A stretch of DNA of 64,000 bases, taken from contig CBDCTS010000004.1 of assembly GCA_965222345.1 (NCBI GenBank), forward strand, positions 641,625 to 705,624, read 5' to 3'. The notes beneath the pieces are model-generated. The model saw only the letters and a list, made by a program, of their open reading frames with translations, was not told the DNA's origin and ran no database searches. The stretch comes from Terriglobia bacterium (lineage in GTDB: Bacteria > Acidobacteriota > Terriglobia > 2-12-FULL-54-10). The position numbers and the translations under genes are program-made. Below, piece by piece: positions 6,419 to 11,073 of the stretch. Position 1 is the stretch's first letter. Each line of letters begins with the position of its first letter.

Positions 6419-7714
6419 TCACGGGGTGAGCGTCCGGGCCACACGGAACCCGTAGTTGCTGTCGCGTTCGCCGGTGGAGTACCCTCTGCGGTCGGCCGAA
6501 TTGTGGCCCCTAAAGCTGTTCCAGGAACCGCCGCGCAGGACGCGATCCCCGCAGTCCCCGCCGCTGATCCACGCCGTCCCGTCGGTCGGCGCCCCCGCGT
6601 AGTTCTCATGCCAACAGTCTTCCACCCACTCACTCACGTTGCCCACCATGTCGTGCAACCCGAAATCGTTGGGGACATACGAGCCCACAGGCGCCGTCCA
6701 TGCCACGCCGTCCCCACAATCGTTGTACCAAAAATCAAACATGGCGGCCTGCATCATCACCCCCGCCGCCGCCCTAAGACTGTGGTCGGGGCCATTCGCA
6801 TATCTACACATCTCATCGTCGTCGTTCCCCCAGGTATAATCCGTCGTCGTCCCCGCTCGCGCCGCATACTCCCACTCCGCTTCGCTCGGCAGCCGGTAGT
6901 CCTGGCCCGTCTGCTCACTCAGCCACCGCGCATACGCTTGCGCATCCTCCCAGATCACGCACACCACCGGATGGCCGTCCCCCTGCTCGAAGCCTGGATC
7001 GCTCCACGACCCGTCATCGGTAACCTGTAACACACGCTCATCAGGGTCAAGTGCGTAGCCCCCCCCCCCGATACAATCCGCACTCATCGTGTGCCGCGTC
7101 GCCACCACGAACGCCGCATACTCCTCTCGCGTCACCTCATACTTCGACAACGCGAACGACGCCACCCTCACCTCGTGTACCGGCAGTTCGTCGTCTTTAC
7201 AATACCGCCCCGACACGCAGCCCATCCGGAACCGCCCCGCCGGTATCACCACCATCTCCGGCGCGCCAGCGCGGGCGGCTTGGCCCAGCAAGTCCTCTAG
7301 CGATTCCCTGGATTCGATCAGCATTGTCAATGCCGTCTGGTAATGCTCGCCCTCCTGCCCCGCCAGTGTCAGGTACCGCGTCAGCTCTTCGACCGCGGCC
7401 TCATACAGTCCGAGCTGTTGCAACACTTCCGCGTATTGAAAATAAAAAACATCCGGGATCTCCAGGCCGTGGTCCTGCCTCAGCATCCGGATCTGATCCA
7501 GCGTTTCCTGCGCCCCTTCAAAGTCTCTTTCTTCAAGCCGTTGTTCCAATTGCTCCTCGTAGAGATCCGCTTGAATCTCCGGAGGAAGCTGCACAGCCAA
7601 GGCTTGATCGGAAGGCGCCGCCAAAAGCGCCCAAGCTAGCAATACAGCGACCGGCAAATACGTCCGGTTCACCCGCCAGGAACCGTGTAATCGCTCCGCA
7701 ACAGTTCGTTCCAT
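6419..7714 (-). CDS. Secreted formylglycine-generating-enzyme (FGE-sulfatase/SUMF1) domain protein with an N-terminal helical module
   Basis: Start set at MERTVAE (GGAGG RBS upstream; signal peptide LPVAVLLAWALLAAPS). C-terminus carries RVLRGGSWNSF and GFRVAR, hallmarks of the FGE-sulfatase fold. Confidence 0.85.
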   Translation of the reverse strand: MERTVAERLHGSWRVNRTYLPVAVLLAWALLAAPSDQALAVQLPPEIQADLYEEQLEQRLEERDFEGAQETLDQIRMLRQDHGLEIPDVFYFQYAEVLQQLGLYEAAVEELTRYLTLAGQEGEHYQTALTMLIESRESLEDLLGQAARAGAPEMVVIPAGRFRMGCVSGRYCKDDELPVHEVRVASFALSKYEVTREEYAAFVVATRHTMSADCIGGGGYALDPDERVLQVTDDGSWSDPGFEQGDGHPVVCVIWEDAQAYARWLSEQTGQDYRLPSEAEWEYAARAGTTTDYTWGNDDDEMCRYANGPDHSLRAAAGVMMQAAMFDFWYNDCGDGVAWTAPVGSYVPNDFGLHDMVGNVSEWVEDCWHENYAGAPTDGTAWISGGDCGDRVLRGGSWNSFRGHNSADRRGYSTGERDSNYGFRVARTLTP

Positions 7715-7752
7715 TTGTCTGCCTCCAGGTGGACAATATCGTTGGAAAGCCT

Positions 7753-8529: not shown

Positions 8530-8730
8530 GGCAATTCCCTTCTTTGTTGTTGTATTGACGTATGGGTTGAAAAGGACAGAATTAATCGTAGCTTGATCCT
8601 CTCGAGCGCCGAACCGGTGTCGCGGTCGCCGGAGGTGTACAAGCTGCGGCTGGCCGAACGGAGGACCCGCGGAATTGTTGCCCCAGGCACCGCCTCGCTT
8701 GCGGCAAGATATGCTGGTAGGTGCGGGGCG

Positions 8731-11073
8731 CTACTCACTATCAATTTCCTTCCGAATGTCTTCGATACGTCGGAGATATGATGGATGTGAACTCAAGAAA
8801 TTTCCGCTCCCACCGCCACTCTTGTCTTGTAGGGTTTCGATCGCATGTTGCATCGCATAGGGGTCATGGCCCAAGCGTTTCAACACACCGACAGAATGAG
8901 CGTCTGATTCCAGTTCATCATTTTGCAAAAACTTGGCGTTGATGAAATCATGAGCCAGTTGACCGAGCTGGGAAGACGTCAGTGCACCGATTGTACCGCC
9001 CACCGCCTCCATTGATTCGAAGGCAACCTTGTTGAGCATTATCTGTCTCGTTTGCGTAAAGATATGTCTCAGGTGGACGTGACCTATTTCATGACCAATG
9101 ACCGCTCTAACCTGATCATCATCCGGCATGGCATCAAGAAGTCCTGAATATACGCGGACGGTTCCGTCAGCCATAGCAAAAGCATTGATGCTGTCATTTA
9201 AGTAGACCTTGAAGTTGAGATCCAAGCCATCGAAGTTCTCCAGGCCTTTGGTAATTTCCCTCAGTCTTATGCTGTAAGCACTCGAGGGTGGCGCCACCTG
9301 GTTTTGCTTGTCATATTCAGCGGCAGCCCGGGATGCGGAATATTTGACTGAGTCCTCATCAAGCGTTACGGCTTCAGCAATACCCAGGGTGGTTTGCGCA
9401 ACCTTGGCCGCCGTGCCGTCCTTACCTGCGGCCGCATCCGCCGCGCCAGCGACGAGTCCTCTGGTGAACGCGCCAAAAAACCCCGGGCTGGAGTCGGCTT
9501 CTTGTCGGTCGGCCCCGGCCGCCCGCAGGGCCTCGGCCACCGCCGGATTCGGGTTTTCATTGGTCGCATAATACAGGGGCGTGTAGTTATCATCATCGCC
9601 CTCTTCGACCTTGGCCCCGGCCGCGATCAAGGCGTCGGCGACCGCCGGATTCTCGTTGTATCGGGCCGCGAGATGCAAGGGTGTCGCGCCATTGTCATCG
9701 TCCTCTCGCACCTTGGCCCCGGCCGCGATCAGGGCCTCGATCACCGCCACATTCTCGTTGTATCGGGCCGCATGATGCAGGGGCGTCCGTCCCCCATCAT
9801 CGTCCTCTCGCACTTTGGCCCCGGCCGCGATCAGGGCCTCGATCACCGCCACATTCTCGTTGTTTCTGGCTGCATAATGCAGGGGCGTGAAGCCATCGTT
9901 GCCCTGGACGTTCGGGTCCGCCCCAGCCGCCAGCAGGGCCTCAAACACCGCCGGATTTGGGTTGTTTCTGGCTGCATAATACAGGGGCGTGAAGCCATCG
10001 TTGCCCTGGACGTTCGGGTCCGCCCCAGCCGCGATCAGGGCCTCGATCACCGCCGGATTCTCGTTGTTTAGGACGGCATAATGCAGGGGTGTCTGTCCAT
10101 CGTTGCGCTGGACGTTCGGGTCCGCCCCGGCCGCGATCAGGGCCTCGGCCACCGCCGGATTTGGGTTGCGCCAGGCCGCATGATGCAGGGGCGTGGCGCC
10201 ATTTTCTGTCCGTGCCGCCACATCGGCCCCGGCTTCGAGTAGAGTCTCGATCACCGCCAGGTTTGGGTTGTTTCGGGCCGCGAAATACAGGAGCGTGGCG
10301 CCATTTTCCGCCCGTGTTGTCAGGTCGCCCCCGGCCGCCACTAGAGCCGCAAGAACCGCCGGATTTTCGTTCGAGGCTGCTTCATGCAGCGGCGTGTGGC
10401 CATCGATGTTAGTTCCGGCCATCAGGTCGGCTCCGGCCGCGATCAGGGCCTCGACCATCGCCGGATTCGGGTTGTATTGGGCCGCACGGTGCAGGGGCGT
10501 GTGGCCATCGTTGCTCCGGACGTTCGGGTCCGCACCGGCCGCCAGCAGAACCTCGATTACAGCCGGGTCTTCCGCATCAGTAGCCGCGTTATGCAGCGGA
10601 GTCAAGCCTGAGGCATTACCAGCTTCCAGATCGACATTCCCGGTCTCCAGGCAGGCAGTCACCTGCTCCAGCGTAGCCGTTTCGAAGTACGCCTCAGCGT
10701 CCCACCCCTCGCAACTGACCTTTGTTTGCAGCGTGCTCAGCAACGCCAGCGCCTCGACGTAGTGGCTGGCCTGGCGTCCCGCCGCCGTCAAATATTCCGT
10801 AACGGATTCCAGTGCCTGCTCCGGCAGGTCCATTGCATCCGCCGTTCTCGCGAACCAGAAGTGGAACTCCGGCAGATCCAGGTCGTGGTCCTCCTGCAGG
10901 CGAACGATGTCCTGGAGCCTGTCCCACGCTCGATCGTAGTTCCCATCGCCGATCGCCTGCTCCACTTCCAGCAGGTAGGCATCCGCCTGCACGTCCGGTG
11001 GCAACTGGGAAATGGCTGGGGTGGCCCCCCATAGGGTGTAAAGGATGAGAATGCTCGAGATCATTGTTCGCAT
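8731..11073 (-). CDS. Secreted ankyrin-repeat protein fused to an M48-family zinc metallopeptidase domain
   Basis: Start set at MRTMISSILILY (GGAGGAG RBS). Carries about 13 ANK repeats (G(A/F)TPLHxAAxxN...ALIAAGAD) and a C-terminal HEIGHVHLRH (HExxH) with M48-like context. Confidence 0.85.
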   Translation of the reverse strand: MRTMISSILILYTLWGATPAISQLPPDVQADAYLLEVEQAIGDGNYDRAWDRLQDIVRLQEDHDLDLPEFHFWFARTADAMDLPEQALESVTEYLTAAGRQASHYVEALALLSTLQTKVSCEGWDAEAYFETATLEQVTACLETGNVDLEAGNASGLTPLHNAATDAEDPAVIEVLLAAGADPNVRSNDGHTPLHRAAQYNPNPAMVEALIAAGADLMAGTNIDGHTPLHEAASNENPAVLAALVAAGGDLTTRAENGATLLYFAARNNPNLAVIETLLEAGADVAARTENGATPLHHAAWRNPNPAVAEALIAAGADPNVQRNDGQTPLHYAVLNNENPAVIEALIAAGADPNVQGNDGFTPLYYAARNNPNPAVFEALLAAGADPNVQGNDGFTPLHYAARNNENVAVIEALIAAGAKVREDDDGGRTPLHHAARYNENVAVIEALIAAGAKVREDDDNGATPLHLAARYNENPAVADALIAAGAKVEEGDDDNYTPLYYATNENPNPAVAEALRAAGADRQEADSSPGFFGAFTRGLVAGAADAAAGKDGTAAKVAQTTLGIAEAVTLDEDSVKYSASRAAAEYDKQNQVAPPSSAYSIRLREITKGLENFDGLDLNFKVYLNDSINAFAMADGTVRVYSGLLDAMPDDDQVRAVIGHEIGHVHLRHIFTQTRQIMLNKVAFESMEAVGGTIGALTSSQLGQLAHDFINAKFLQNDELESDAHSVGVLKRLGHDPYAMQHAIETLQDKSGGGSGNFLSSHPSYLRRIEDIRKEIDSE
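9590..10560. repeat. Near-identical 99-bp tandem DNA repeats encoding the ANK units
   Basis: Long identical stretches, e.g. ttgtttctggctgcataatacaggggcgtgaagccatcgttgccctggacgttcgggtccgccccagccgc, occur at about 9870 and about 9960. Confidence 0.7.

Follow-up and report, generated by a model that had tools for sequence, protein, structure and literature searches.

A predicted TPR-like N-terminal module shared by a putative DGR-diversified lectin-fold protein and an ankyrin-M48 protein at an acidobacterial locus

Why would two exported proteins with unrelated C-terminal heads, encoded close together in one genome, begin with the same stretch of sequence after their signal peptides? This question is raised by a locus of a Terriglobia bacterium (Acidobacteriota; assembly GCA_965222345.1), in a stretch of 64,000 nucleotides from contig CBDCTS010000004.1 (positions 641,625 to 705,624) that we call the window and whose own coordinates we use below. 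According to the open reading frame (ORF) listing, the region holds three minus-strand genes, encoding an FGE-sulfatase protein (gene A), a 258-aa protein (the middle gene) and an ankyrin (ANK)-M48 protein (gene B). An earlier note, made from the sequence alone, had described A and B as adjacent genes of a small secreted effector family in which a novel module of about 120 residues is fused to different enzymatic heads. The two genes are not in fact adjacent, as the middle gene (7753-8529) and a truncated remnant of a variable region (VR; ~8586-8700) lie between them. We judge it probable that the module is a tetratricopeptide repeat (TPR)-like handle, that it carries in protein A a lectin-fold head of the type diversified by diversity-generating retroelements (DGRs) and in protein B an ankyrin-M48 head, and that the locus is a rearranged cluster of DGR targets. 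Homologous loci are referred to by L numbers and homologous proteins by P numbers. The layout is as follows.

6419..7714, minus strand: gene A, in an ORF reaching to 7756 (445 aa) with its likely start at M15 (7714); signal peptide, TPR-like module, helical linker, FGE-sulfatase/C-type-lectin-fold domain and C-terminal variable region.
7595..7714, minus strand: signal peptide of gene A (MERTV...LLAAPSDQALA), read from the sequence, with an AxA-type cleavage site directly before VQLPPE.
7304..7594, minus strand: module copy A, 97 aa (residues 55-151), from BLASTP, tblastn, family alignment, AlphaFold2 and Foldseek.
7753..8529, minus strand: middle gene for a 258-aa exported protein, an ORF with a 4-nt overlap between its stop and the ORF start of gene A.
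8586..8700, minus strand: truncated, non-coding VR remnant (~110 nt) of an L013-type DGR target gene, from a blastn match to the gene A VR and alignments.
8731..11073, minus strand: gene B, in an ORF reaching to a TTG at 11127 (798 aa) with its likely start at the ATG at 11073; signal peptide, TPR-like module, 11 ankyrin repeats, linker and M48 metalloprotease.
10723..11010, minus strand: module copy B, 96 aa (residues 40-135), from BLASTP, tblastn and family alignment.

The start of gene A was placed at M15 because a 95%-identical homologue, P0140, begins there (MERTV).

Proteins A and B do align after their signal peptides, as had been proposed (BLASTP E = 3e-17, 34% identity over 146 aa, with no second significant segment). 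The module on its own, without the signal peptide, still recovers the other copy by tblastn (E = 2e-18 and 3e-15), which rules out that the similarity reflects signal-peptide composition only; the same type of search found no module copies in the 64-kb window beyond these two. The shared unit behind the signal peptide is thus real but shorter than the 120 residues first estimated. Its conserved length is 97 aa, over which 37 homologues align with zero gaps and with A67, Y74 and Y85 invariant, and its signature reads QLPPEIQAD ... H-x-L-x-L-P ... F-x-F-x-x-A ... Y-L-x-x-A-G-R-x-G-E-H-Y-x-x-A-L.

To gauge the size of the family, an exhaustive HMMER profile search was made of 1.84 billion cluster representatives (50% identity). 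It returned 2016 representatives with E<=1e-3, of which 1058 reached E<=1e-10 and 128 reached E<=1e-30, numbers that do not fit the small effector family of the earlier note. A first word-index search had given only matches shorter than 300 aa, many of them frameshifted, and the architecture statistics were taken from the exhaustive search instead. Position and conservation were assessed in 205 sampled members, 192 of which had a complete first module. In 169 of these 192 proteins the module starts at residue 15-45, and a hydrophobic, signal-peptide-like run precedes it in 143 of the 169, typically with the junction AxA followed by QLPP (Q in 77% and L in 100%). Conservation reaches at least 95% at L3, P5, D10, A28, A67, Y74, L75, G79, G82, Y85, A88 and L89. 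Tandem modules also occur, with two copies in 31 of the sampled proteins and three or four in two.

What follows the module varies. Among 76 representatives of at least 300 aa, the partner was an FGE-sulfatase domain in 31 and ankyrin repeats in 19, with few or single cases of LRR, PDZ, VWA and MORN. The proposal that one module is joined to different C-terminal parts therefore holds for the FGE-sulfatase and ANK-M48 proteins here and extends to more partners across the family, whose heads (FGE-sulfatase/C-type-lectin fold, ankyrin, LRR, MORN, PDZ and VWA) for the most part bind ligands or proteins. M48 does not figure among the 25 most frequent Pfam families of the 76 representatives, nor in any other sampled member. 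The named sources are all metagenome-assembled genomes (MAGs), from Bryobacterales, Vicinamibacteria/Vicinamibacterales, other Acidobacteriota, Binatia, Gemmatimonadota and Rhodospirillaceae; the family is found in uncultured diderm bacteria of several phyla. These MAG series may derive from marine sponge or holobiont metagenomes.

Module genes tend to be clustered, with two each in the window, L004, L007, L012, L013/14 and L016, and three genes with four modules in L015. The L015 genes lie within 10 kb of a Gemmatimonadota contig (GCA_028874975.1, JAPPGS010000098.1, 3693-13341) and encode an 805-aa ANK protein, a 282-aa MORN-like protein (P0033) and an 875-aa ANK protein that has two modules in tandem. 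The family has here expanded locally in a different phylum. The N-terminal part also appears to move between genes. P0025 (module-ANK, L013 5395-6114) and P0002 (module-FGE, L012 10001-10510) have an identical 46-residue N terminus through VQLPPE, after which P0025, unlike P0002, changes to a B-type module subtype. This switch behind an identical signal peptide points to the exchange of N-terminal cassettes by recombination at the cassette junction.

Which fold does the module adopt? No Pfam or NCBIfam model matches it at threshold: the best TPR models reach E 0.013-0.034 and 15-16 bits against cutoffs of 25-35 (TPR_8, TPR_12, TPR_15 and TPR_19 were among those tested), and a sequence-profile search of the PDB gave nothing better than E = 0.03. 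Across the family, any single Pfam TPR model reaches E<=1e-3 in only 9 of 76 members. The structure prediction that the earlier note had called for, to look for a TPR-like helical bundle, gave exactly that, with AlphaFold2 on the family alignment returning five helices at pLDDT 96.3 and pTM 0.87. In a Foldseek search of the PDB the best folds are all TPR (CTPR, SGT, Sgt2, CHIP and PP5; TM 0.67-0.72, probability 1.0), as are almost all of the top 50 matches (also Hop and MamA; TM 0.6-0.77, probability 0.99-1.0), with a root-mean-square deviation of 2.0-3.6 Å over 88-97 columns at 12-23% identity. We are confident in assigning the predicted structure to a TPR-like fold, with two TPR hairpins and a capping helix, within which the module, judged by its sequence, is a distinct family. 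The earlier note had not recognised the module, and neither do the libraries, although the fold is familiar; the note had also stated that a match to a common TPR or Sel1 repeat would make the module unremarkable, and this is so for the fold, while at the sequence level every Pfam TPR threshold failed.

Known TPR domains with up to three repeats, such as CTPR3 (PDB 1na0 and 1na3), SGT/Sgt2 (2vyi and 5lyn), CHIP and PP5, have the same antiparallel hairpins and capping helix, and they dock peptides or proteins, which is the role we propose for the module. Unlike them, members of the module family have near-invariant motifs of their own, are exported and keep a fixed place after the signal peptide. 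These differences bear on the suggestion that the module is merely an ordinary, short, generic TPR stretch with no specific shared function, and that A and B look alike through recent duplication or recombination within one locus. A fold search that yields only TPR proteins, the weak Pfam TPR matches and the demonstrable recombination of N-terminal cassettes (P0025 versus P0002) are all compatible with this. However, a length fixed at 97 aa and a position fixed right after the cleavage site are hard to square with a generic repeat, as are the near-invariant residues outside the TPR consensus (L3, P5, D10, H42, P47, Y74, G79, R80, G82 and Y85) and the 1058 clusters at E<=1e-10 in several phyla. 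Moreover, the modules of A and B are only 34-38% identical, which argues against a recent local duplication. We consider this explanation improbable.

The position of the module raises a second alternative, namely that it is an export or sorting domain, a second-step secretion signal that moves heads from the periplasm to the surface or medium, rather than an anchor. A conserved motif at the mature N terminus (AxA then QLPPEIQAD) and a signal-peptide-plus-module cassette common to unrelated heads could both be read in this way, and DGR variable proteins and ankyrin effectors are in general expected to be extracellular. But the LPPE motif is kept internally in second and third tandem copies, so that it is part of the fold and does not require a free N terminus. 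In addition, no secretion-system genes were found in the window or in the five homologue loci with precomputed Pfam annotation, so the co-occurrence of homologues with a dedicated secretion system that the earlier note had raised was not borne out in the annotated loci. Folded TPR domains are, to our knowledge, not a class of secretion signal. An export function for the module is thus, in our view, quite unlikely.

We turn to the head of protein A, for which two further features are needed.

6434..7264, minus strand: FGE-sulfatase (FGS / C-type-lectin fold) domain of gene A, Pfam FGE-sulfatase (PF03781) 4.7e-64, aa 165-441.
6452..6526, minus strand: DGR-type variable region of gene A, ...GGSW-NSFRGHNSADRRGYSTGERDSNY-GFRVAR, from homology to the VRs and template repeat (TR) of the L013/L014 DGR.

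Is this head an enzyme? The similarity searches could be taken to say so. Its nearest solved sequence is PvdO (2e-43), ahead of true FGEs (~1e-24; 1e-24 for the FGE entry), TvpA (a lipoprotein; 7e-10) and also PorK, and PvdO is likewise the best NCBIfam match (NF051459). Together with the HEIGH motif in the M48 domain of protein B, this could support an enzymatic reading in which A is a true FGE/PvdO-like redox enzyme, B is a protease and both heads receive a common substrate through the module. In a HMMER alignment to human FGE (SUMF1) chains, however, the catalytic C336 and C341 correspond to S and a gap (GGSYMCHRSYC aligns with GGSWNSFRGH-), so that neither cysteine of the pair is present in the gene A head and a hypervariable segment stands in their place. 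The PvdO score of 190 bits is also far below the equivalog cutoff of 500. PvdO (PDB 5hha), which itself lacks the FGE active site, is periplasmic like protein A, but it has neither a hypervariable segment nor a TPR module, and its pyoverdine context is absent from the window. The match to TvpA is restricted to the C-terminal part of the head, ...GGSW-(~25 variable residues)-GFRVAR. In a full-length AlphaFold2 model of protein A (mean pLDDT 67.6) the module was confirmed and the VR had pLDDT <50; a long helix joins the module to the C-terminal head, the packing between the two being unreliable in the model.

The alternative to an enzyme is a DGR variable protein. PF03781 is a lectin-fold domain (PMC8195603) and is among the commonest DGR target domains (PMC4159848), and the genes for the reverse transcriptase (RT) and Avd may lie at a distance from it in the genome (PMC8195603). 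As in gene A, the DGR variable proteins known from TvpA (PDB 2y3c), PF03781 targets (PMC4159848) and FGS proteins (PMC8195603) carry a C-terminal PF03781 domain with a terminal VR. Gene A differs from TvpA-type systems in having no RT, Avd or TR within 64 kb, and protein A, which is exported, differs from the FGS proteins of PMC8195603, which are intracellular STAND/effector fusions. We found no paper describing an N-terminal Sec signal and TPR-like module attached to a DGR target, and literature searches for the module and for DGRs of sponge symbionts gave nothing relevant.

Evidence comes from the homologues of gene A. In L013/L014 the gene order is g310, module-ANK, FGE-sulfatase, bAvd and RVT_1, with a TR rich in AAC codons at the 3' end of the RT ORF. 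Between this TR and the 3' end of the adjacent FGE gene, 9 of 9 mismatches fall at TR adenines; for a second FGE gene, which does carry the module (92% identical to that of the window), the count is 12 of 12. An independent acidobacterial locus, L009, encodes a module-MORN-FGE protein followed by bAvd and RT, and 13 of its 16 mismatches are at TR adenines. Homologues of gene A are thus bona fide DGR targets.

Does the same hold for gene A itself? Its C-terminal segment is homologous to the VRs of L013/L014, and variation is concentrated there, in tests that rest on two or three comparison sequences. Relative to L016, the VR has 8 nucleotide differences in ~78 nt compared with 21 in ~1200 nt upstream; relative to P0140, the 95-96% identical protein of L016, 6 of 26 VR residues differ compared with 17 of 405 elsewhere. 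Differences from the L012 orthologue involve an A in 13 of 15 cases in the VR and in 34 of 85 upstream. From homology and the pattern of variation there is a strong case that gene A encodes a DGR variable protein, its cognate retroelement being unseen, and we take its head to be, most likely, a lectin-type binding domain made hypervariable by a DGR, not an enzyme. The missing catalytic residues and the DGR evidence together largely exclude an enzymatic role for head A. With most other heads of the family being non-catalytic repeats, and M48 so rare a partner, we regard a shared-substrate enzyme pair as very improbable indeed.

A second trace of DGR activity occurs in the spacer immediately behind the stop codon of gene B. 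The remnant found there has lost its 3' part and is homologous to the VR of the FGE344 gene of L013, which in L013 comes after the module-ANK gene. L016, from a close relative, has an orthologous remnant (8815-8945) with an identical 5' junction that is longer, extending through the end of the VR and into downstream sequence. The flanks of the two remnants are 97% identical, yet the remnants disagree at 21 of the 27 columns with adenine in the L013 TR, as against 6 of 50 other columns (Fisher p=1e-8). At non-adenine columns each fits an L013-type TR at 46-47 of 50 positions (47 of 50 for the window remnant). The fit at non-adenine columns and the divergence at TR-adenine columns therefore indicate that an L013-type DGR acted on this lineage. 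Such action apparently continued after the target gene was truncated, which would mean that mutagenic homing reached a target already dead. We read the locus as a rearranged cluster of DGR targets, with DGR footprints (an orphan VR and a truncated VR) and no DGR in 64 kb.

Gene B carries a different head, of two parts.

9493..10680, minus strand: eleven ankyrin repeats of gene B, from Pfam, with TPLH/TPLY motifs each 34 aa.
8737..9417, minus strand: M48 peptidase domain of gene B, from Pfam/NCBIfam, with the HEIGH zinc motif at 9079-9093 (aa 679-683).

The ankyrin repeats score above the Pfam threshold (Ank_2 254 bits, 8e-77; Ank 219 bits), and so does the peptidase (PF01435, 86 bits versus a cutoff of 20.3; 3.6e-24). 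With its HExxH motif in place, the M48 domain is probably active, and the architecture is unchanged in the L016 orthologue. Of the two enzymatic heads first proposed, then, the M48 domain still looks catalytic (HEIGH), in contrast to the FGE domain, which lacks the catalytic cysteines and falls in the lectin-fold class of DGR variable proteins. The best NCBIfam match is LoiP-like (1.7e-54, 185 bits, under the equivalog cutoff of 365); the C terminus is also BepA-like (1e-15), at 57.5 bits versus a cutoff of 570. BepA, like LoiP an M48 metalloprotease of the E. coli envelope, pairs its M48 domain with a TPR domain that docks it onto envelope machinery, a functional analogy for a TPR handle. Unlike BepA and LoiP, however, protein B has an N-terminal TPR-like module that is unrelated in sequence, 11 ankyrin repeats before the M48 domain and no lipobox.

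How might these parts work together? Both proteins are Sec-exported, with a 97-residue, five-helix TPR-like domain at or beside the mature N terminus. This domain would serve as a common N-terminal handle, for protein-protein docking or as a spacer, that binds a conserved envelope or partner protein and holds or presents the C-terminal binding heads in the envelope or at the surface. Head A would be a lectin-fold variable protein diversified by a DGR at 6452-6526, and head B an ankyrin solenoid ending in a LoiP-like M48 protease that is predicted to be active; the RT, Avd and TR would lie outside the 64 kb. The earlier note had suggested a shared localisation, anchoring or partner-binding domain, and the fixed position and varied partners of the module fit such a role. 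Its actual function we infer, and by analogy with other TPR domains we put forward a docking or presentation handle tentatively, as a possible role that falls a little short of an even chance. Export past the periplasm may likewise occur.

Several observations weigh against this explanation. Some of the weakest of the 2016 family matches may be generic TPR proteins. In L013 the primary DGR target, FGE344, has no module, so the module is not needed for the function of a variable protein. No RT or Avd was detected in the window, either by tblastn with the L013 RT and bAvd or by Pfam on ~33 ORFs, and the only match in the 64 kb to a template repeat for the gene A VR, at 8618-8668, is the truncated remnant, which is a VR rather than a TR. 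At non-adenine positions, too, the L013-type TR fails to fit the gene A VR, and the TR inferred for gene A, GGTTACTGGAACAACTTTAAGGGCCACAATTCGGACGACCGCAAAAGGTACACCACCGGCGAACGCAACAACAACAACGGGTTCCG, gave 0 matches as exact and degenerate patterns in JGI metagenomes (two scans) and in IMG/VR. DGR activity on the gene A copy may be current, but its ongoing diversification is read from two related contigs only. Finally, no conserved receptor or secretion genes were found beside family members.

The neighbourhood offers one candidate partner for the module, the co-operonic 258-aa middle protein. In L001 (5014-5679) and L016 (9113-9962) a homologue is encoded immediately upstream of a module gene, and L013 (4424-5356 and ~10477-11419) and L014 (1471-2403 and 7524-8429) have two such homologues each. 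The proteins of this family have 258-310 aa, are exported and have a Cys-rich, beta-rich C-terminal region. The middle protein has no PDB sequence match and no informative family in Pfam or NCBIfam (an exact look-up found no record of it), its only annotation match being a weak one to ChitinaseA_N (4e-5). Another recurrent neighbour, absent from the window, is an ~800-aa GAF-PAS-HisKA-HATPase-REC-Trans_reg_C hybrid histidine kinase/response regulator found on the minus strand in three acidobacterial MAG loci (L004 3206-5788, L011 3077-5530 and L006 9801-12161), divergently upstream in two of them.

Is the cassette mobile? The module genes sit in a 29.7-kb island bracketed by two IS3-family copies (2470-3737 and 33493-34759) that are 99.9% identical and in direct orientation. 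A related transposase lies at 1075-1917, and the left IS3 copy abuts a truncated DUF4172/Fic gene (3693-4196) that is intact in L016. The island also carries TIR, HNH, Eco57I-like methylase, SNF2 and DEAD/MZB helicases, Fic, SRAP and Y-family polymerase genes. Beside the ANK-M48 gene, at 11929-14143, are a SRAP (SOS-response-associated peptidase) gene and then an impB/mucB/samB-family Y-family polymerase gene. A defence-like run follows at 14526-31707, comprising a TIR-domain protein (14526-15929), an HNH endonuclease (17255-18001), an unannotated 423-aa ORF (18004-19275), a 1404-aa Eco57I/N6-methylase protein, a 930-aa SNF2 helicase and a 1747-aa DEAD helicase with an MrfA Zn-binding (MZB) domain.

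A 297-aa ORF on the minus strand (4473-5366) has no family match and contains an internal duplication, ...SLNFEAAPVFSSLPPGEVDADAQG and ...SLNNEAAPVFSSLPPGEVDAAAQG; the adjoining stretch 5153-6189 is 96% identical to a plasmid-like contig, L012 (ENA ERZ26694896 ctg106297, 29.3 kb). L012 holds a module-FGE gene (89% nucleotide identity to the window's) and a module-ANK gene (78%). It also has two RepA_C genes, MobA/MobL, and RelE and PemK/MazE toxin-antitoxin genes, which point to mobility, and the cassette appears to travel on a plasmid-like element. No match to the module was found among PLSDB plasmids. The window itself is chromosomal, because the dcw cluster makes up its right half. The FtsZ encoded there is 83-84% identical to proteins of 'Acidobacteria bacterium' MAGs, and an FtsI-like penicillin-binding protein in the cluster (61275-63431) has a weak C-terminal PASTA match (E=2e-6), unusual in a diderm.

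What, then, is new? The TPR fold and the types of head (DGR lectin-fold variable protein, ANK and M48) were already known; the fold of the module is ordinary and its function is proposed from likeness to other TPR domains. Judged against the libraries and the literature that could be searched, the new elements are a large, cross-phylum, unannotated N-terminal domain family, a common cassette on DGR targets and ankyrin proteins, and the orphan and truncated VRs of this locus. In at least a thousand clusters the N-terminal domain is unannotated, or the proteins are named 'hypothetical' or 'SUMF1/EgtB/PvdO family nonheme iron enzyme'. With the domain defined, those names would be corrected and many of the proteins would be marked as candidate targets of DGRs instead of enzymes. 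The orphan VR and the truncated non-coding VR, with its strain differences at template-adenine positions, offer material for work on retroelements that act in trans or have been lost. Little is known of how the cell places DGR variable proteins and bacterial ankyrin proteins, inside it or on its surface, and a compact, confidently modelled handle common to both classes makes that question tractable. It may be, though we think it somewhat unlikely, that the module is a horizontally shared, cross-phylum presentation handle that couples DGR lectins and ANK, LRR and MORN proteins to one envelope receptor or export route. If so, uncultured and possibly host-associated bacteria would use a single conserved docking system to display binding heads that can evolve and be exchanged.

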